Assembly (NCBI RefSeq): GCF_030028105.1
Contig: NW_027278410.1
Location: 62,001 to 126,000, forward strand
Source: Mobula birostris
Taxonomy: Eukaryota
DNA: 64,000 nt
Direction: 5' to 3'
Shown: positions 10,976 through 36,324 of the stretch, piece after piece
Layout: each line of letters opens with the position of its first letter
Numbering within the stretch: position 1 is the stretch's first letter
The notes under the pieces: model-generated
The model's database searches: none
Told to the model about the DNA's origin: nothing
Seen by the model: only the letters and a program-made list of their open reading frames with translations
Translations under genes and position numbers: made by a program

Positions 10976-13900
10976 TCAGTGTACAGAACTCCCCCTGAGA
11001 GAGAGGGACTGAGAGACACCGGTCAGTGTACAGATCTCCCCCTGAGAGAGAGGGACTGAGAGACACCAGTCAGTGTACAGATCTCTCCCCTGAGAGAGAG
11101 GGACTGAGAGACACCGGTCAGTGTACAGATCTCTCCCCTGAGAGAGAGGGACTGAGAGACACCAGTCAGTGTAGAGATCTCCCCCTGAGAGAGAGGGACT
11201 GAGAGACACCGGTCAGTGTACAGATCTCTCCCCTGAGAGAGAGGGACTGAGAGACACCGGTCAGTGTACAGATCTCCCTCTGACAGAGAGGGACTGAGAG
11301 ACACCGGTCAGTGTACAGATCTCCCCCCTGAGAGAGAGGGACTGAGAGGCATCAGTCAGTGTAGAGATCTCCCCCTGAGAGAGAGGGACTGAGAGGCATC
11401 AGTCAGTGTAGAGATCTCCCCCTGAGAGAGAGGGACTGAGAGACACCGGTCAGTGTACAGATCTCCCCCTGAGAGACACCGGTCACTGTACAGATCTCCC
11501 CCTGAGAGAGAGGGACTGAGAGACACCAACCTGTGTACAGATCCCCCCCTGAGAGAGAGAGACTGAGAGACACCAGTCAGTGTACAGATCTCCCCCTGAG
11601 AGAGAGGGACTGAGAGACACCGGTCAGTGTACAGGTCTCCCCCTGAGAGAGAGGGACTGAGAGACACCAGTCAGTGTAGAGATCTCCCCCTGAGAGAGAG
11701 GGACTGAGAGACACCAGTCAGTGTAGAGATCTCCCCCTGAGAGAGAGGGACTGAGAGACACCGGTCAGTGTACAGATCTCTCCCCTGAGAGAGAGGGACT
11801 GAGAGACACCAGTCAGTGTACAGATCTCCCTCTGAGAGACACTGATTCGTGTACAGATCTTCCCCTGAGAGTGAAGGTCTGAGAGACACTGGACACTGTA
11901 CAGAATTGGCTTTAGTGGGAGGGACTGAGAGACACCAGTCAGTGTAAGATTCCACATTGAGAGATGGGGACTGAGAGACACAGGATAGTGTACAGTCCTC
12001 ACTCTGAGCGACACCAGTCAGTGTACAGATCCCCCTGAGAGAGAGGGACTGAGAGACACCGGTCAGTGTACAGATTCCACATTGAGAGATGGGGACTGAG
12101 AGACACAGGATAGTGTACAGTCCTCACTCTGAGAGACACCAGTCAGTGTACAGATCTCCCTCTGAGAGAGAGGGACTGAGAGGCATCAGTCGGTGTAGAG
12201 ATCTCCCCCTGAGAGAGAGGGACTGAGAGACACCAGTCAGTGTACAGATCTCCCTCTGAGAGACACTGATTAGTGTACAGATCTTCCCCTGAGAGTGAAG
12301 GTCTGAGAGACACTGGACACTGTACAGAATTTGCTTTAGTGGGAGGGACTGAGAGACACCGGTCAGTGTACAGATCCCCCTGAGAGAGAGGGACTGAGAG
12401 ACACCAGTCAGTGTACAGATCTCGCCCTGAGACAGAGGGACTGAGAGACACTGGTCAGTGTACAGATCTTCTCCTGAGAGAGAGAGAGAGAGAGGCACTG
12501 AGAGACTCTGGTCAGTGTACAGAACTCCCCCTGAGAGAGAGGGACTGAGACATCGGTCAGGGTTCAGATTCCACTGTGAGAGAGGGACTGAGAGACACCA
12601 GTCAGTGTACAGATCTCCCTCTGAGAGACACTGATTAGTGTACAGATCTTCCCCTGAGAGTGAAGGTCTGAGAGACACTGGACACTGTACAGAATTTGCT
12701 TTAGTGGGAGGGACTGAGAGACACCGGTCAGTGTACAGATCCCCCTGAGAGAGAGGGACTGAGAGACACCAGTCAGTGTACAGATCTCGCCCTGAGACAG
12801 AGGGACTGAGAGACACTGGTCAGTGTACAGATCTTCTCCTGAGAGAGAGAGAGAGGCACTGAGAGACTCTGGTCAGTGTACAGAACTCCCCCTGAGAGAG
12901 AGGGACTGAGACATCGGTCAGGGTTCAGATTCCACTGTGAGAGAGGGACTGAGAGACACCGGTCAGTGTACAGATCTCCCCCTGAGAGAGAGAAACACTG
13001 GTCAGAGTACAGATTCCAATCTGAAAGAGAGAGACTGAGAGACAAAGGTCAGTGTACAGCTTTCCCCTTGAGAGAAGGGACTGGGATACATCGGACAGTG
13101 TACGGATCTCACTCTGAGAGTGGGGGAACTGAGAAACACAGGTCAGTGCACAGATCTCACTCTGAGAGAGAGAGACTGAGAGACACCAGTCAGTGTACAG
13201 ATCTCCTCTGAGAGAGAGGGACTGAGAGACACCGGTCAGTGTACAGATCTCCTCTGAGAGAGAGGGACTGAGAGACACTGGTCAGTGTACAGATCTCTCC
13301 CCTGAGAGAGAGGGACTGAGAGACACCGGTCAGTGTACAGATCTCCCCCTGAGAGAGAGGGACTGAGAGACACCGGTCAGTGTACAGATATCCCCCTGAG
13401 AGAGAGGGACTGAGAGACACCGGTCAGTGTACAGATCTCACTCTGAGAGAGAGGGACTGAGAGACACCAGTCAGTGTACAGATCTCCTCTGAGAGAGAGG
13501 GACTGAGAGACACCGGTCAGTGTACAGATCTCCTCTGAGAGGGAGGAACTGAGAGACACCGGTCAGTGTACAGTCCTCACTCTGAGAGACACCAGTCAGT
13601 GTACAGATCCCCCTGAGAGAGAGGGACTGAGAGACACCGGTCAGTGTACAGATCTCCCCCTGAGAGAGAGGGACTGAGAGACACCAGTCAGTGTACAGAT
13701 CTCTCCCCTGAGAGAGAGGGACTGAGAGACACCAGTCAGTGTACAGATCTCTCCCCTGAGAGAGAGGGACTGAGCAACACTGGTCAGTGTACTGATCCCA
13801 CTCTGAGAGATGGAGACTGAGAGACAACAGTCAGTGCACAGATCTCTCAATGCAAGAGAGGGTCTAAGTGGCACCAGTCAATGTACAAATATCCCCCTGA

Positions 13901-16420
13901 GGGAGAGGGCCTGAGCGAAACTGATCAGTGTACAGATCCCCCTGAGAGAGAAGCAATGAGAGACACCGGTCAGTGTGCAGATCTCCCCCTGAGAGAGAGG
14001 GTCTGAGAGACACCGGTCAGTGTATGGAATTCGTTTGAGAGGGAGGGACTGAGAGACACCAGTTGGTGTACAGATTCCACTCTGAGAGATGGGGACTGAG
14101 AGACACAGGATAGTGTACAGTCCTCACTCTGAGAGACACCAGTCAGTGTACAGATCCCCCTGAGAGAGAGGGACTGAGAGACACCGGTCAGTGTATGGAA
14201 TTCGTTTGAGAGAGAGGGACTGAGAGACACCAGTCAGTGTACAGATTCCACTCTGAGAGACACAGGATAGTGTACAGTCCTCACTCTGAGAGACACCAGT
14301 CAGTGTACAGATCCCCCTGAGAGAGAGGGACTGAGAGACACCGGTCAGTGTACAGATCTCCATCTGAGAGAGAGGGACTGAGAGACACCAGTCAGTGTAC
14401 AGATCTCGCCCGGAGACAGAGGGACTGAGAGACACCGGTCAGTGTACAGACATCCCCCTGAGAGAGAGGTGCTGAGGGACACTGGTCAGTGTGCAGATAT
14501 CCCCCTGAGAGAGAGGGGAATGAGCAACACTGGTCAGTGTATGGAATTCATTTGAGAGGGAGGGACTGAGAGACACCAGTTGGTGTACAGATTCCACTCT
14601 GAGAGATGGGGACTGAGAGACACCAGTCAGTGTACGGATCTCCCTCTGAGAGAGAGGGACTGAGAGATACTGGTCAGTATACAGATCTCAGTTTGAGGGA
14701 GAGACGGTCTGAAAGACACTGGTCAGTGTACTGTTCTCCCCATGAGAGAGAGGGACTGAGAGACACCAGTCAGTGTACAGATCTCACTGTGAAACAGAGG
14801 GATTGAGAGATATTGGTTAATGTGCAGATCTCCCCATGAGAGAGAGGGACTGAGAGACACCCATCAGTGCAGATATCCCCTGAGAGAGAGGGACTGAGCA
14901 ACACTGGTCAGTGTACTGATCCCACTCTGAGAGATAGAGACTGAGAGACAACAGTCAGTGCACAGATCTCTCAATGCAAGAGAAGGTCTAAGTGGCACCA
15001 GTCAATGTACAAATATCCCCCTGAGGGAGAGGGCCTGAGCGAAACTGATCAGTGTACAGATCCCCCTGAGAGAGAGGGACTGAGAGACACCGGTCAGTGT
15101 GCAGATCTCCCCCTGAGAGAGAGGGTCTGAGAGACACCGGTCAGTGTATGGAATTCGTTTGAGAGGGAGGGACTGAGAGACACCAGTTGGTGTACAGATT
15201 CCACTCTGAGAGATGGGGACTGAGAGACACAGGATAGTGTACAGTCCTCACTCTGAGAGACACCAGTCAGTGTACAGAACCCCCTGAGAGAGAGGGACTG
15301 AGAGACACCGGTCAGTGTATGGAATTCGTTTGAGAGAGAGGGACTGAGAGACACCAGTCAGTGTACAGATTCCACTCTGAGAGACACAGGATAGTGTACA
15401 GTCCTCACTCTGAGAGACACCAGTCAGTGTACAGATCCCCCTGAGAGAGAGGGACTGAGAGACACAGGTCAGTGTACAGATCTCCCTCTGAGAGAGAGGG
15501 ACTGAGAGACACCAGTCAGTGTACAGATCTCGCCCGGAGACAGAGGGACTGAGAGACACCGGTCAGTGTACAGATCCCCCCCCTGAGAGACACCGGTCAG
15601 TGTACAGATCCCCCTGAGAGAGAGGGACTGAGAGACACCGGTCAGTGTACAGATCCCCCCCTGAGAGAGAGGGACTGAGAGACACCGGTCAGTGTACAGA
15701 TCCCCCTGAGAGAGAGGGACTGAGAGACACCGGTCAGTGTACAGATCCCCCCCTGAGAGAGAAGGACTGAGAGACACCGGTCAGTGAACAGAACTCCCCC
15801 TGAGAGAGAGGTGCTGAGGGACACTGGTCAGTGTGCAGATATCCCCCTGAGAGAGAGGGGAATGAGCAACACTGGTCAGTGTATGGAATTCGTTTGAGAG
15901 GGAGGGACTGAGAGACACCAGTCGGTGTACAGATTCCACTCTGAGAGATGGGGACTGAGAGACACCGGTCAGTGTACAGATCTCCCTCTGAGAGAGAGGG
16001 ACTGAGAGATACTGGTCAGTATACAGATCTCAGTTTGAGGGAGAGACGGTCTGAAAGACACTGGTCAGTGTGCTGTTCTCCCCATGAGAGAGAGGGACTG
16101 AGAGACACCAGTCAGTGTACAGATCTCACCGTGAAACAGAGGGATTGAGAGATATTGGTTAATGTGCAGATCTCCCCATGAGAGAGAGGGACTGAGAGAC
16201 ACCCATCAGTGCAGATATCCCCTGAGAGAGAGGGACTGAGAGACACCAGTCAGTGTACAGATCTCCCCCTGAGAGAGAGGGACTGAGAGACACCAGTCAG
16301 TGTACAGATCTCCCCCTGAGAGAGAGGGACTGAGAGTTACTGGTCGGTGTACAGATCTCACTCTGAGAGAGAGGGACTGAGAAACACCTGTCAGTGTGCT
16401 GGTATCTCCTGAGAGAGAGG
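10976..16420. repeat. About 5.4 kb satellite of ~47-bp units with higher-order duplications
   Basis: Unit CTGAGAGAGAGGGACTGAGAGACACCGGTCAGTGTACAGATCTCCCC (10995 to 11042 = 47 bp); variant blocks repeat at 365-bp and about 1124-bp offsets. Confidence 0.97.
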
Positions 16421-27546: not shown

Positions 27547-27577
27547 GTAAGTGAGGGGAAGAAGGAGCTTCCCAAGC

Positions 27578-28510
27578 AAGTGTGTGATGGGACAATGTGG
27601 AGGGAGATTCACTCAGTGTCTGACCCTGGGGGTGTGTGAGGGGACAGTGTAGAGGGAGATTCACTCTGTGTCTGACCCCAGGAGTGTGTGATGGGAGAGT
27701 GTAGAGGGAAATTCACTCTGTGTCTGAACCTGGGAGTGTCTGATGGGATGCTGTGGGGGGAGATTCACTCTGTGTCTGACCCTGGGAGTGTGTGATGGGA
27801 CGGTGTGGAGGGAGGTTCACTCTGTGTCTGACCCCAGGAGTGCGTGATGGGACAGTGTGGAGGGAGATTCACTCTGTGTCTGACCCCGCAAGTGTGTGAT
27901 GGGACGGTGTGGAGGGAGATTCACTCAGTGTCTGACCCTGGGGGTGTGTGAGGGGACAGTGTAGAGGGAGATTCACTCTGTGTCTGACTCCAGGAGTGTG
28001 TGATGGGACAGTGTGGAGGGAGATTCACTCTGTGTCTGACCCAGGGAGTGTGTGATGGGACAGTGTAGAGGGAGATTCACTCTGTGTCTGACCCTGGGAG
28101 TGTGTGATGGGACAGTGTGGAGGGAGATTCACTCTGTGTCTGACCCTGGGAGTGTGTGATGGGATGGTGTGCGGGGAGATTCACTCTGTGTCTGACCCTA
28201 GGAGTGTGTGATGGGACAGTGTAGAGGGAGATTCACTCTGTGTCTGACCCCAGGAGTGTGTCATGGGACAGTGTGGAGGGAGATTCACTCTGTGTCTGAC
28301 CCTGGGAGTGTGTGATGGGACAGTGTAGAGGGAGATTCACTCTGTGTCTGACCCCGGGAGTGTGTGATGGGACAGTGTGGAGGGAGATTCACTCTGTGTC
28401 TGACCCCGGGAGTGTGTGATGGGACAGTGTAGAGGGAGATTCACTCTGTGTCTGACCCCGGGAGTGTGTGATGGGACAGTGTGGAGGGAGAATCACTCTG
28501 TGTCTGACCC
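27578..28510. repeat. 52-bp minisatellite, left arm (about 18 units)
   Basis: Unit GGGAGTGTGTGATGGGACAGTGTGGAGGGAGATTCACTCTGTGTCTGACCCC. Confidence 0.97.
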
Positions 28511-28609
28511 TTTTTTTTACAAAATTCTTTATTACAAATGTCGGTGCTATACAATATTTACAAAACCAGTGACTAACACATTTACTACACTACAAACAGA
28601 CAATACATG

Positions 28610-31600
28610 TTAAACCAGTGTATTGCCATCCTCATCAATGATGGCATTTACACCCCGCGGAGCCCAACGGTCCCGGAACATCTCTACGGTCGCCGTGGAC
28701 TGTGCGTATTCCTTTTCAATGTTCACCCGGGCACGAACATACCCCCTAAACATAGCCAGGCAGTCCGCCCGGGGAGAACCTCCTGCCACCCTTTTCCAGG
28801 AGCCACGGATGGCAATTTTCGCCACCCCAGGAGCAAGTTGACAAGGACATCCTCATCCCTCTGTGCCCCCCTCCTTACTGGATGACCACATATGAATAGG
28901 GTGGCACTGAAATGCAACCAGAAAGCGAGAAGCAGCCCACGCAAATACGCGAAAAGGGGCTGCAGCCTCACACACTCCACTTACATACGGTACACGGTCT
29001 CCTCCAGCCCGCAGAAGTGACACGCGGCTGGGAGATCCGTGTACAAACTAAAGAACTTATTGCAGGGCACCGCTTTATGCAGCACCCTCCAGCCGAGATC
29101 CCCAAGGTGCATGGGAAGGACTCCCTTGTAGAGGGACTTCCATTGGGGACCCCCCTCACCTCCAGGTGGAAAGACCGACCGCCATGGCGTGTCGGGACGG
29201 TGGACAAATGCTTGGAAGTGGAGGGTGTGGAGCAGCAGCCCATAAAGGTACCTCCTGCCTGCATCCCTGAATGGGATTGTGGGTGTCGATGAAAGACGGC
29301 TCAAGTTGTGTGGATTCGTCTCTCGCGCAAGGCTGCGGGGCCTGGGCCGGACGAACAGCTCAGCCCGAGTCGTTCCACACACCTGAGCCGCACTGACATC
29401 CGTTGAGGCAGGGCAAGGGTCGGCCAGGACTCCGCCCTCTGCCAGAGGAGGGGATTCCCGGCCTGAGGCAACCATGTTCCAGACTCTCAGTAGGTCCTGC
29501 TAGAAGCCGGGCAGCCTCTGCAAAGCAGCACGGCTGACGCCCGCCGGTGGTAGCTGCATATCTTCGTGAAGGCAGCAGCCCCTCCGGAGGAAGAAAGTCG
29601 CCAACACGTGCCACCTGGGAGGGGGCTCGGCGTACAGGAATCTCTGCAGAGTCCTGAGGCGGAGAGCCGCCAGTCGTGTGCGTACACACACCAGCGACTG
29701 TCCGCCCTCTCCTTCTGGGAGACTCAGAACCGCTGCAGAGACCCAGTGCTTCCTGTTTCCCCAGAAGAAGTCCACTAGCTTCCTCTGCATTCTTGCGACA
29801 AAAGGGGCAGGGGGGGCCAAGGTGACCATCCGGTACCACAACATGGAGGCCACCAGCTGGTTTATGACCACCACCCTGCCTCGACAGGAAAGCACCCTGA
29901 GAAGGCCTGACCAGCGCCCTAGCCGGCCCATGACTTTTGTCTCCAGGTCCTGCCAGGTCTCCCCAGAAGGACTCAGGTAGACTCCCAGATAGAGAAGACG
30001 TCTGGTGCTCCACTCAAAAGCTCTCATCTCCTCCGGCAGGGAGTCCACCTGCCACTGGCCTACTAAGAGTCCGGAACATTTCGCCCAGTTGATCCTCGCG
30101 GAGGATGCCGCCGAGAAAACATCTTGGCACTCGCGCATCCTCCGCAGGTCACAGGGGTCTGTGATCATGAGGAGTACATCATCGGCGTAGGCCGAGAGGA
30201 CGACCCCCATATCCGGTTCGCGCAGAACCAGATCTGTCAGCCTTCTCCGAAGAAGGCCGAGGAATGGCTCGACACAGATTGCATACAGTTGACCGGACAT
30301 GGGGCACCCCTGACGCACTCCTCTTCGGAAGTGGATAGGTCCTGTCAATGATCCATTAATCTTAACTAGGCACTCTGCGGCAGAGTACAGGAGCCGAACT
30401 CGGGCCACAAAGTGTGGTCCGAGCCCAAAAGCCTGCAGGGTGCCCACCAGGAAACTGTGGTCCACCCGGTCAAACGCTTTCTCCTGGTCAAGAGAAAGAA
30501 ACGCAGCCGGGGTCCCAGTCTCCTGGAGTAGGTGGATCAGGTCCCGTACTAGGTGGACATTGTCCTGGATGGAGCGGCCCGGGACTGTGTAAGATTGGTC
30601 AGGATGGACCACTTGTCCAATTACCGAACCCAGACGGTTGGCGATTGCCCGGGCGAAGATCTTGTAGTCCGCGCACAAGAGGGAGACCGGCCGCCAGTTC
30701 TTTAGCAGGCGGAGGTCTCCCTTCTTGGGCAGTAGGACCACAACAGCTCTTCGCCATGAGAGGGGAATTTCTCCGGTGGCTAGGCTCTCCCCTAGGACAA
30801 GGCTGTAATCATCCCCCAGGACATCCCAAAAAGCCTGATAAAACTCAACACTCAGTCCATCCAAACCAGGGGACTTGCCCCTCCGGAGTTGCCGAAGGGC
30901 AGTGGACAGCTCCTCCCGAGTCAGGGGGGCATCCAGACGCACTGCGTCCTCTGGGCTGACCTTAGGCAAATCCTTCCAGACCTCATTACACGCCTCCGCA
31001 TTTGACGGATCAGGCGAGAATAAGGACCGACAGAATGAACGGACCTCGTTGTTAATTCCATCAGGGTCCGTGATGGAGGAGCCATCGGCAGCCAGCAGCT
31101 CCACTAGCTGCTTTTGAACTCCCCGCCACCTTTCCAACGAGTAGAAGAAGGGTGAGCCACGGTCCAAATCCTGCAGCATTTGGATCCGTGACCTCACGTA
31201 CGCACCTCGGGACTGCAGGAGCTGCAGGTTCCTTAGTGCGTCCTTCTTCTCCTGGTATTCCTGCCACAGCTGCTGGTCTCCAGAGGTCGGACCGAGGCGG
31301 GACTCCAGGTCAAGCAACGCTCTCTCAAGCCGCTCAACCTCAGAGCTCCGCCTCTTTGTCGACCCCCTAGTGTACTCCCGACATAAAAACCATAGCCGTA
31401 GGGAGCAGAACTCTCTCCGCCTCTCCTTCCAGGAGACCCAGAAAGCTCGGAACGAATCCCGGAATCGGCTGTCCTCCAGCAGCCGGTTGTTAAAATGCCA
31501 ATACCTGGATCCCACCCGAGGGTGTAGTGGAATAAATTCCATCCACACAAGGTGATGATCCGAGCACGACACTGGCCGCATGGAGGACGCCGACACGCGG

Positions 31601-32097
31601 GAGACGTAGGCCCGAGAGATATATATACGGTCTATCCTGGAACCCCCTTCTCTAGACCTTCTCGAGAAGGCGCTAGAGTTGGGGTGAAAATTCCGCCAGC
31701 TGTCCACCAAGTCAAAGGAGCCGACTAGCTCCTTTAACTTTTTTGCTGATGCTGGGTCGCGTTGGAGGCCCGAGCGGTCCTCCGCCTCGAGGGTACAATT
31801 GAAGTCTCCCCCGAGGATTTCGCAATCCCCAGGATCGATGGAGCTCAGCAGGGTGGACAGCTGGCAGAATAGGCGCGTCTGCATCACACCGCGCCTGGGA
31901 GCATACACATTGATAAAATGCAATGGTACGCCATCCAGGCGCACAACCAGCCAAGCAGACTCGTCCCCAGGGATGGTATGGGTTTCCTGCAGGAAACTCA
32001 CCGTATACCGTCCAACCCTGAGGGCTGAGAGATTGTTACGCCTGCGAAGAGGACCCCTGCTGCCGTTTACATTGCGACTAGCTATGGTAAGCTTCAT
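28610..32097 (-). pseudogene. Tx1 ORF2 (AP endonuclease, reverse transcriptase, C-terminal zinc finger), disrupted
   Basis: LQETH, GGDFN, SRIDRIY, SDHH; NWRPVSLL, LDQEKAFDRV, GVRQGCP, AYADD; CHFC near the C-terminus. Premature TAG at 29500-29502 (frame resumes in ORF 28981..29475) and frameshifts near 28980 and 28825. Confidence 0.92.
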
Positions 32098-32109
32098 GGC
32101 GGGAGCACA

Positions 32110-34110
32110 CTAGGTCTCAGCAGCTGTGCCCATTTCGGTGAGAGCGGAGGCGCCCTCCACCACACTGTCCGGAAAGAAAGCAAGGTTACTTTTTGCCTTC
32201 CGGGCTCGAGCGGTACCAGCGACACCCTGTGACCCACGATCCCCCGTAGGAGCGAGGCTGCTTCTCCCTCTGATGTCCCTTACTAGGTCATCGAGGAAAG
32301 ATTTTAGTTGCCGTCTGTCGTTCCCCGACACCGCATTCCTCTTTCCCTTTCCCTTTCGTCCGAGGATGACTCGCAGGGACCTCGCCAGCCTCGGCATGCT
32401 GGGCCAACGAAGCGAGGCTAGTTGAGGCCGGTGCTTGGCACCCTCAGAGGTGAGAATAAAATGCTTAATTTCCTCTACAGGTATCAAAGGGGACTTCTCA
32501 GGAGGGGTGAGGATGTCCATTGTTTCACTATCGAAAGAGTCCCCCTCCAACCTGTCACTGCAGACAGAATCCCCATCGGCCTCCCCGCATGTTCCAATAG
32601 ATGGCTGCGCTTGTGACCCATACCGCGCAGCGGGCACCTCGCTCTTACCTGCCCGCTCCACCGTCGCATCAGTTTCATCCACATTTGCAACAGTGGAGGG
32701 ACAATCCCCAGGGACTCCCTGCAAGTCATTAATTGCTGGGGTCGACGTGCACAGAATATCGCCCTCCCCAGGGGGCAGGCATAGAGGGGAACCCGGCATC
32801 TTTGGTCCAAGGGATTCACAAGCCGCCTGGTGCTGAGAATGAGAGAGCTTTGTCTCGTCTCCTCTTACACTATTCGGTACACTGGCCTCCAGAGAGGCGC
32901 TGACTTGTAGGTCCCAGGTGGAGGCCTCCAGGGCTGCCTCATTTGTGCAAACAGGGCTATCACAAGCTTTTTGCACAACCACACCATCTACCCCAGGACT
33001 GGTGGCTACATCTGGGGACTCAGGTTTAGAACCAACCCCTACCCGGATTCCCACCCCTTCCTGGGACTCTCCCGCATCTACATCCCCTGCCATCTTGCGG
33101 GAACGTTCCCTTCTCCTCTTCACGCCGGAGGAGCACACAGGTGCAGGCTTCACCGATGGGGCGGCGCTTTCTGTTTCCATCGCCCCGTCTGCTTGCGCAC
33201 CTCCCCGAGCGTGGCGTCCACTTCAGGCGAAATGGGCGTGAGCTCTGCGGCCTCAAAGGCCCGCTTCTTACTGTGTTTGGATTTCCCCTTTGCCTTCTTA
33301 CTCCGCACAGACTCCACCCCGTCCCCCACCTGAACCACAGGGAGAGGAGCAGGGACCGACCCAACCGTAGGAGTAGGGGCAGGGGTAGGGGCAGGGGCAG
33401 GGTGAGGGGCTGGGGCAGGATCACGGGCGGGGGCAGGGTCAGATGCAGGCGCAGACGCACGCGCAGGAGTAGGATCAGGGGGAGAGGTAGCTGGGGCACT
33501 GGTGCCCGAAATTGGCTCCCTCGGGTTCCGGGCGGCAGGACAGTCCCTCCGAAAGTGCCCCACCCCCCTGCACGCATGGCACCGCGGGCGCTCGGAGCTC
33601 CAGTACACCTGATAATCCACTCCCTCGTGCCGGACAGTAAACTGGCCCTCAACATCGTCCTCCCTTTCCAGCTGCATGAATACCTGACGCCGGAAAGAGA
33701 TTACGGTGCGGAGGGTGCGTCTCTTAAATTTGTGTCGGATGGCAGTGATCTCCGACCTTACTTGCCCTAAACGGGCCAGTGGGGGAAGCAAGTCCTCATT
33801 TGGAATGAAAGGCTTAACATGCCCAAGCACGATACGTTGCGTGGGGGCCGTCACCAGCTCCATAGGTAAAAAGATGTTGTCTACCGTGACTCCCCTGCTT
33901 AGGGCCCGGTGCACTAGCTCTTCATTCGCCAGATAGAACACCGCCTTTCCGAACTCCTCGGTGGCCAGAATACCACCTTTCCCAACAAGGTCTTCCATTG
34001 CCTCCGTACACTTTTCTAGTGTCATTCCAGGGCGCAAAATACATTGCACCCCACGTTCCACCTTCACCGAACGAAACAGGGCGTTGTCCGAGGCCGGGGA
34101 GGCAGCCGCC
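32110..34110 (-). pseudogene. Tx1 ORF1 (gag-like nucleic-acid-binding protein), frameshifted
   Basis: ORFs 33150..34067 and 32110..33180 overlap in different frames; zinc knuckle CHACRGVGHFRRDC; PA-rich linker; stop 12 nt before the ORF2 ATG. True start codon uncertain. Confidence 0.85.
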
Positions 34111-34661
34111 CTTGCGTAACTCCCCGAAGGCCCGCGACTCCCTGGAGACCGGTCCGGCTTGCTGGCGCTCTTTCCAGTCCGAGAATCCTACAGCGGTGCC
34201 AGTTAGAAGTCCTGGAACGAGTCGAATAACTGGCCGGGAAAGTTTGCAGTCGACAGTTCTCGCTGGTTCGGCGCCAGGAAAGGCTCCGTCGGACTTGCAG
34301 AGACCCAGGCCGGGAGAGGCCGAAACGTCCTTCCAGATGCTCCGGCACCGACACCGGACGAAAATCAGGAAAACAATGGAGGAGGAACGTTGCCCCGATG
34401 TCAATGGGGGGGAACGACGGCGTTTCCCTCCGGTTTTGGAGCGAACCGGCTCACTGGCGAGTTGCCAGCGGCCGCAGCTGGGAGCTACGCAGTTAGCAGC
34501 CGCCAACAAACCCAGCCGAAACCGGCAGTAAAACTCCACACCAGCGCCGTCACTCACTCAGTTGTCCAAGAGACTTTTAGAGCCACCTCCAAAGTATTCC
34601 ACGAACTTTATCCAGTAGTTTTGCCTCGATTTCTCCCAGCTCAGTCAGCACAGCTCCTCTA

Positions 34662-36260
34662 TGTGTCTGACTCTGGGAGTGTGTGATGGGACAGTGTGCA
34701 GGGAGATTCACTCTGTGTCTGACCCCGGGAGTGTGTGATGGGACCGTGTGGAGGGAGATTCACTCTGTGTCTGACCCCGGGATTGTATGATGGTACAGTG
34801 TGGAGGGAAATTTCACTCTGTGTCTGACCCTGGGAGTGTGTGATGGGACAGTGTGGAGAGAGCCACGCTCTGTGTCTGACCCCGGGAGTGTGTGATGGGA
34901 CAGTGTGGAGGGAGATTCACTCTGTGTCTGACCCCGGGAGTGTGTGATGGGACAGTGTAGAGGGAGATTCAATCTCTGTCTGACCCTGGGAGTGTGTGAT
35001 GGGACAGTGTGGATGGAGATTCACTCTGTGTCTGACCCTGAGAGTGTGTGATGGGACGGTGTGGAGGGAGATTCACTCTGTGTCTGACCCCAGGAGTGTG
35101 TGATGGGATGGTGTGGAGGGAGATTCACTCTGTGTCTGACGCTCAGAGTGTGTGATGGGACAGTGTAGAGGGAGATTCACTCTGTTTCTGACCCTGGGAG
35201 TGTGTGATGGGACGGTGTGGAGGGAGATTCACTCTGTGTCTGACCCCGGGAGTGTGTGATGGGACAGTGTGGAGGGAGATTCACTCTGCTTCTGACCCCG
35301 GGAGTGTGTGATGGGACAGTGTGGAGGGAGATTCACTCTGTGTCTGACCCTGGGAGTGTGTGATGGGACGGTGTGGAAGGAGATTCACTCTGTGTCTGAC
35401 CCTGGGAGTGTGTGATGGGACAGTGTAGAAGGAGATTCAATCTCTGTCTGACCCTGGGAGTGTGTGATGGGACAGTGTGGATGGAGATTCACTCTGTGTC
35501 TGACCCTGAGAGTGTGTGATGGGACGGTGTGGAGGGAGATTCACTCTGTGTCTGACCCCGGGAGTGTGTGATGGGACGGTGTGGAGGGAAATTCACTCTG
35601 TGTCTGACCCTCAGAGTGTGTGATGGGACAGTGTAGAGGGAGATTCACTCTGTGTCTGACCCTGGGAGTGTGTGATGGAACGGTGTGGAGGGAGATTCAC
35701 TCTGTGTCTGACCCCGGGAGTGTGTGATGGGACAGTGTGGAGGGAGACTCACTCTGCTTCTGACCCCGGGAGTGTGTGATGGGACAGTGTGGAGGGAGAT
35801 TCACTCTGTGTGTCTGACCGTGGGAGTGTGTGATGGGACAGTGTGGAGGGAAATTTCACTCTGTGTCTGACCCTGGGAGTGTGTGATGGGACAGTGTGGA
35901 GGGAGATTCACTCTGTGTCTGACACCGGGAGTGTGTGATGGGACAGTGTGGAGGGAGACTCACTCTGTGTCTGACCCTGGGAGTGTGTGATGGGATAGTG
36001 TGGAGGGAGAGTCACTCTGTGTCTGATTCTGGTAGTGTGTGATGGGATGGTGTGGAGGGAGATTCATTCTGTGTCTGACGCTGGGAGAGTGTGATGGGAC
36101 GGTGTGGAGGGAGATTCACTCTGTGTCTGACCCTGGGAGTGTGTGATGGGACAGTGTGGAGGGAGATTCACTCTGTGTCTGACCCCGGGAGTGTGTGATT
36201 GGACAGTGTGGAGGGAGATTCACTCTGTGTCTGACCCTGGGAGTGTGTGATGGGACAGTG
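34662..36260. repeat. 52-bp minisatellite, right arm (about 30 units)
   Basis: Same unit and orientation as 27578-28510. Confidence 0.97.
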
Positions 36261-36324
36261 CAGAAAAGTTGGCAATTCTCTTGACTCTCTCCCTTCTTCA
36301 TCTCTTCCCCTCTCTTTGTTTCAG

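Follow-up and report, generated by a model that had tools for sequence, protein, structure and literature searches.

A young Tx1-clade LINE family with a preference for one point of a dispersed 52-bp minisatellite and a satellite-derived head at its 5' end

LINEs with an APE endonuclease nick DNA with this enzyme of their own and copy their RNA from its tail by target-primed reverse transcription. In the type element of the clade Tx1, Tx1L of Xenopus laevis (P14381), insertion takes place at a single site of a dispersed repeat (PMC1950540, PMC4494074), and the family described here has a comparable preference. The targets of other Tx1 families, namely Keno, Kibi, Koshi, Dewa, Mutsu and Tx1-Mar, are U2, (TC)n, (TTC)n, tRNA arrays, 5S and Mariner-N4, respectively, and the legend of Fig. 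3 in PMC4494074 lists “Sat, satellites” among Tx1 targets. In the accessible text of the same source, truncated copies in phase serve as a test against hitchhiking of insertions with their target. Two further observations from related systems are relevant to the present family. The hairpin loop of the L1 endonuclease has been tied to the reading of the target (according to the accessible part of PMC1950540), and the annealing of a target-derived head to the target has a precedent in PMC2718515, as far as that source is accessible.

Here, we analysed a Tx1-clade LINE in a stretch of 64,000 nucleotides from the genome of Mobula birostris (hereafter, the window). The element occupies positions 28511-34658 on the minus strand (6,148 bp), is full length and lies antisense within an array of a 52-bp minisatellite (Table 1). 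Its T8 tail at 28511-28518 directly adjoins ...TGTGTCTGACCC, and a piece of the unit is found at both ends of the element (28496-28510 and 34659-34673); this piece is 15 bp long with 2 mismatches, and not about 12 bp as given in the preliminary description. APE endonuclease and RT domains were detected in the window copy, which is full length yet, judged against a natural intact copy, unable to code. In ORF1, the first ATG is gone and a 1-bp deletion is present near 33216, and ORF2 has an in-frame deletion of 45 residues in the endonuclease near 31950. Further deletions of 27 bp and 12 bp and premature stops at about 29500 and about 28981 were found in the same comparison. The complete antisense element of about 6.15 kb that had been described earlier thus stands with respect to its length, strand, tail, AATAAA signal and the presence of both ORFs, with the correction that the ORFs are broken.

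Table 1. Positions of the element, its parts and the surrounding features in the window
Feature	Position	Strand	Remark
Array arm on the element's 3' side	27579-28511 (feature 27579..28510)	.	Period 52, 17.9 copies (about 18 units)
Array arm on the element's 5' side	34662-36260	.	Period 52, 30.7 copies (about 31 units)
15-bp unit piece directly after the tail; cut site at the 28510 end	28496..28510	-	Same junction in 122/374 copies
Poly(A) tail, 8 bases (T8)	28511..28518	-	Seen in the sequence
AATAAA signal	28528..28533	-	Seen in the sequence
ORF2: APE endonuclease, RT, C-terminal Cys/His motif; broken	28610..32097 (low coordinate approximate)	-	
ORF1 with CCHC zinc knuckle; first ATG lost, frame shifted	32110..34160	-	
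5' UTR, the element's unique part	34161..34658	-	
Satellite-unit head, about 22 bp, spanning the cut site; probably element-carried	34659..34680	-	
Putative intron of a single-copy CNC/bZIP gene, containing the array and the element	27548..36324	+	

Splice signals flank the array and the element, with GT as the donor at 27548 and AG as the acceptor at 36324, and we infer from them that both lie in an intron. The next exon of the host gene encodes a bZIP_Maf domain, and the assembly contains only one match to a neighbouring exon; by the resemblance of a motif, the gene may be NFE2-like. The earlier proposal that intronic arrays serve as landing sites holds in this form for the window copy, the sole copy examined in this respect. 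Other GC-rich minisatellites are located in the window at 90-424, 1341-2322 and 10976-16420, with periods of 50, 63 and 47.

Searches of the genome (4.01 Gb) yielded 374 exact matches to a 23-base motif beside the tail, representing 3' ends, and 216 exact matches to a 5' start motif. A total of 120 copies were taken for comparison, comprising the first 80 of the 374 in contig order (the unselected copies, 28 of which come from one region of contig C6) and 40 picked from the on-target list. Both ORFs were whole in 14 of these 120 copies, with lengths of 684 aa for ORF1 and 1220 aa for ORF2. The family of the window copy is young: the 70 near-full-length copies, including that of the window, differ from the commonest letter per column by a median of 1.0%, and the window copy differs by 1.9% from the commonest letters of this 70-copy alignment. 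The family has the hallmarks of a poly(A) tail, 5' truncations and target-site duplications, and is without LTRs. An intact natural ORF2 contained the Pfam domains Exo_endo_phos (residues 6-226) and RVT_1 (511-761), and its best solved relative was human L1 ORF2. In an intact ORF1 (684 aa), the match to zf-CCHC at residues 194-209 (E 0.001, 19.5 bits) was slightly below the cut-off of 20.8, and the Cys/His motif was visible.

On the basis of sequence comparison, the family is assigned to the Tx1 clade. Among the 120 matches listed for ORF2, the closest named protein across the whole query region was Xenopus Tx1L ORF2 (53%), and a stingray gene model matched at 88% over about half of the query. 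This RefSeq model (P0018, “von Willebrand factor A domain-containing protein 7-like”), which carries a piece 88% identical to ORF2, is likely a chimera, created during annotation, that includes a copy of the element. Trees were built from 25 rows picked from the 120 matches listed, with midpoint rooting instead of an L1 outgroup and with a sampling that held no named Keno or Tx1-Mar sequences. In these trees, the family grouped with Tx1L (P14381), a sturgeon protein, turtle proteins and one unnamed protein, with support of 100/100 for RT and 100/99 for the endonuclease, and its branch was apart from the teleost proteins sampled. The Tx1 assignment made in the preliminary description is borne out by both trees. 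The hairpin loop of the endonuclease is 4 residues shorter in the family than in Tx1L and was identical in 59 of the 65 copies covering it.

Copies also occur close to, or inside, one another. A dense cluster with many head-to-tail stacks at a spacing of 6.3-10 kb was observed at G000:C6:80.5-100.4 Mb, and the insertions L013, L025 and L096 lie in the body of another copy of the same family. In the 3' flank of L006, the tail continues into a sister element's head, at the same point of the target; the sister element is more diverged, and this arrangement suggests an older family with the same target.

The family inserts preferentially at one point and in one orientation of the dispersed 52-bp minisatellite. 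Genome-wide, 122 of the 374 exact tail motifs (33%) had the unit motif 3-32 bp away. Among the 100 matches listed of these 122, which are spread over about 18 contigs, 99 were in phase, the start lying 1-5 bases past the motif as judged by eye, and the remaining one was at the matching point of a 58-bp unit variant. The 15-mer of the unit occurs 27,541 times in the 4.01 Gb; scaled by the rate of exact 15-mers in the window (34 of 48.7), this corresponds to about 39,000 units, which make up about 0.05% of the genome, with diverged units undercounted. By chance, arrays would be expected to hold 0.19 copies in total and 0.006 in phase, compared with the 122 observed, a gap that the undercount of diverged units cannot close. 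Among the 80 unselected copies, 33 were strictly on target and another 3 were at the homologous point of diverged arrays (36/80, 45%), in 24 separate clusters, and no insertion into the unit at another phase or on the opposite strand was found among these 80. Both the genome-wide proportion and that of the unselected sample lie above the >20% of flanks given for target-specific Tx1 families in the accessible text of PMC4494074. Runs of T10 beside the unit were in phase at 29 of 30 distinct places (among 100 listed of 226 overlapping matches), whereas the control, T10 beside the other half of the unit, gave 2 matches, one of them in phase after a deletion. Truncated copies with differing breakpoints and tails were in phase as well, and truncated on-target copies have 5' junctions scattered over about 0-33 bases of the unit. 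The target unit was also examined for a hairpin, and none was found (z 0.78), and Rfam searches of two loci with full-length copies (L105 and L116) found nothing.

The preference is relaxed. Off-target insertions accounted for 44 of the 80 unselected copies, and the specificity is therefore weak beside that of Tx1L. From the single copy, the preliminary description had proposed a family specialised on the minisatellite and had suggested tabulating the flanks of its 3' ends. This tabulation supports the proposal as to a single phase and orientation (122 of the 374 3' ends; 0/80 unselected copies at another phase or strand), with the qualification that 44/80 lie outside the satellite. A look-alike site in a Gypsy-type pol region, CACTCCT^GGGG, was struck by three differently truncated copies (L134, L137 and L151), and a fourth copy, L067, has its 5' end at the same site, a second hotspot resembling the satellite cut site. 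Of 33 truncated off-target copies, 14 had a recognisable duplication by the author's rule and manual count, and in 14/14 of these the cut was preceded by C or T, where the anchoring excludes A and three represent the same site. As a raw count, 11 of 42 off-target copies sit in other tandem repeats with periods of 17-68, as judged from the 3' flanks of L099, L102, L112, L113, L114, L116, L119, L122, L131, L133 and L141.

The 5' ends of the copies carry a second trace of the satellite. Among the 80 unselected copies, 8 of the 9 near-full-length copies located off the arrays start with a stretch of unit sequence, 16-28 bp long, that spans the cut site, and these heads end at the same unit base as those of on-target copies. 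More off-array heads, seen from the 5' side only, were found in L067, L071, L088, L250, L253 and L290. Every one of 30 unselected intact 5' ends, a set that overlaps with the 80 copies, had at least 14 bp of unit in phase, and genome-wide there were 185 exact matches to the start plus head compared with 216 to the start, the two counts being based on different motifs. Headless or partly headed starts amounted to 4 of 30 in a second set, where two share one flank, and L141 is a further case. The head typically comprises the 20-22 bases preceding the unique sequence; its start lies about 6 bases ahead of the cut, and the cut site is therefore part of it. In the copies L149 and L150, which lie in a diverged array, the head is canonical and the local unit is a variant. 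Full-length on-target copies join at unit base 16, or a few bases off if the element's initial bases are altered or absent. Because 8/9 off-array near-full-length copies still bear the unit head, the 5' “duplication”, which the preliminary description had called ambiguous, appears to be largely carried by the element and not to be an ordinary target-site duplication.

Full-length and truncated copies differ in their location. On target were 26 of 37 full-length copies and 7 of 43 truncated copies (Fisher p 1e-6, in a test that treats stacked and neighbouring copies as independent); without four duplicates, the counts were 26/36 and 6/40, respectively. Copies are often located within the head of another copy. 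On C12, a second full-length copy inserted into an off-array head; this is one event, present as 4 segmental duplicates. The surrounding sequence is an unrelated tandem repeat, and 52-bp arrays are absent from the 500 bp around it.

The window copy and L204 have the most rare variants in common (9 of the 67 of the window copy) and share 67 identical bases of 5' flank (to about 34725), with uncommon letters. This 67-bp identity would fit one longer head from a common source, and gene conversion may be an alternative. An allelic or haplotig relationship of the two was considered and rejected: the neighbouring exon has a single match, and the tails and the farther flanks differ. The truncated copy L108 has 3' variants that are absent from its 5' side, and non-sharing within arrays can therefore arise by joining another unit; in the stack L144-L146, a variant is common to both sides. 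A cap-derived G before several heads was also considered and is given no weight, since the flank sequence can explain it in some of them. At another locus (L101:4920-7380, G000:C1), a truncated copy of the element has a whole U6 snRNA copy (Rfam, 114.8 bits) joined to its 5' end, and a duplication of about 54 bp flanks the fusion. This is likely a U6/Tx1 chimera formed via template switching.

We consider it probable that the APE endonuclease picks the site and that the unit-derived head anneals to the target, completing full-length insertions. [quoted passage not shown] The cDNA of this head could pair with the target and prime the second strand, resulting in a fixed 5' junction, and head annealing would favour full-length copies on target. 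Each full-length copy would also re-create the cut site at its own front, even away from an array. The transcript start in the unit, the annealing of the head and the re-creation of the cut site are steps that we infer from the arrangement of the copies.

The head is complementary to the primed strand and spans the cut, and it could thus take part at an earlier stage, with the RNA guiding the site choice by pairing across the cut before the nick and the endonuclease being only loosely pyrimidine^purine. The Gypsy-type hotspot matches the head around the cut, the off-target flanks of L112 and L119 contain 9-11 bases of the head's downstream part, and the shortened hairpin loop of the endonuclease would also be consistent with such guidance. 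However, the isolated Tx1L endonuclease nicks its target without RNA, according to the accessible text of PMC1950540. Most off-target sites resemble the head little beyond the junction and the L119 match is out of register, and we regard guidance by the RNA as unlikely. To our knowledge, no APE LINE is guided by the head of its own RNA. A broader version, in which the first 20 or so RNA bases find the cut site and longer heads seed the minisatellite, so that element and satellite would spread mutually, is improbable to a similar degree.

The head may alternatively be the old target-site duplication of a founder, now fixed and passive, with the on-target excess of full-length copies arising from selection or stacking. 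Such a fixed element end would be in line with the clustering of head lengths at 20-22 bp and with the 8 cases of off-array full-length copies that formed without long homology, and tandem stacks do inflate the on-target full-length count. However, the heads vary, in that their variable position holds A, G or T and their lengths range from 16 to 28 bp, and one pair has 67 bp in common, which together point to renewal of the head from different source loci; the same join of head and target is moreover found in a diverged organism (D, below), and we consider a passive head quite improbable. The multiplication of a few insertions with the array by duplication or gene conversion, without any targeting, is very improbable: it would account for some segmental duplicates (L114/L115, L158/L159 and the C12 set), but is largely refuted by independently truncated in-phase copies and fails because these and the look-alike site in an unrelated Gypsy-type element share the same cut, and the copies on target, which lie on about 18 contigs among the 100 listed, are not alike in their truncation points, tails and flanking unit variants.

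About half of the sampled words were present in the runs of three organisms, and a small share in two more. Compared with a natural tandem junction, contigs from A, B, C and D run on in phase from the element's 5' end into the satellite, and in contigs of A, B and D, the tail is joined to the satellite in phase; in organism C, one contig spans the 15-bp piece and the tail. This cross-species support consists of 1-5 contigs per junction, among the best-supported loose ends listed, and organism A is possibly the same species as that of the window.

In the open-access literature, no description of a Tx1 family paired with the 52-bp minisatellite was found, and the accessible parts of PMC8869645, PMC3747384 and bioRxiv 10.1101/2022.10.17.512540 hold nothing specific on this pairing. 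The earlier remark that no description of the pairing was known is consistent with this result, with the qualification that satellites are already listed among Tx1 targets in the figure legend of PMC4494074 cited above. Repeat-targeting Tx1 families and annealing target-derived heads are thus known, and it is this target and a head spanning the cut that appear to be undescribed. A specialist would expect the targeting; the cut-spanning head is less expected, and it illustrates how a targeted element can bring its own landing site along. The family is a vertebrate site-preferring LINE with intact young copies and a short defined DNA target, for which a natural series of on-target, near-target and off-target insertions is available, and it is relevant to retrotransposon-based gene insertion.

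Among the described systems, Tx1L has an ORF2 that is 53% identical over residues 1-800 and an endonuclease that is 46% identical to that of the family. Tx1L is described as stringent and targets the DNA transposon Tx1D, whereas the family targets a free 52-bp minisatellite with about a third to half of its copies. The Tx1L site reportedly lies within an internal tandem repeat of Tx1D. Identity with Tx1L proper was rejected in view of the 52-bp minisatellite target, the 44/80 off-target copies and the 53% identity of ORF2. Keno, Kibi, Koshi, Dewa, Mutsu and Tx1-Mar were likewise rejected as candidates and are set apart by target only, the on-target flanks of the present family being the 52-bp unit. 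The crocodilian families Tx1-Mar, Tx1-8_Crp and Tx1-4_AMi likewise have a relaxed preference above the 20% threshold (Kojima 2015, PMC4494074), and crocodilian Tx1 families also show tandem insertions around a duplicated target, some of them preferring sites in LTR elements (PMC4494074). Their named targets are transposons and microsatellites, and in the accessible text of that source no cut-spanning head is described for them or for SINEU-2B, for which target-derived 5' extensions have been proposed, SINEU-2 being linked to crocodilian Tx1 families (PMC4494074). A weak preference for a satellite is shared by YURE of Ciona, which belongs to a lineage with a restriction-like endonuclease and whose satellite is derived from the U2 gene (accessible text of PMC4640811). 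The closest parallel to the head is melanogaster-type R1A, an element of the R1 clade that targets 28S rDNA, for which Stage and Eickbush 2009 (PMC2718515) inferred from off-target copies that full-length transcripts include 6-27 nt of target sequence. This target-derived head was inferred to anneal and to produce precise 5' junctions; its end lies 9 bp short of the cut on the upstream side, and a deletion results, as described in the accessible part of PMC2718515. Unlike that of R1A, the head of the present family extends across the cut as far as +15/16; the result is an apparent duplication, and a usable cut site would be restored.
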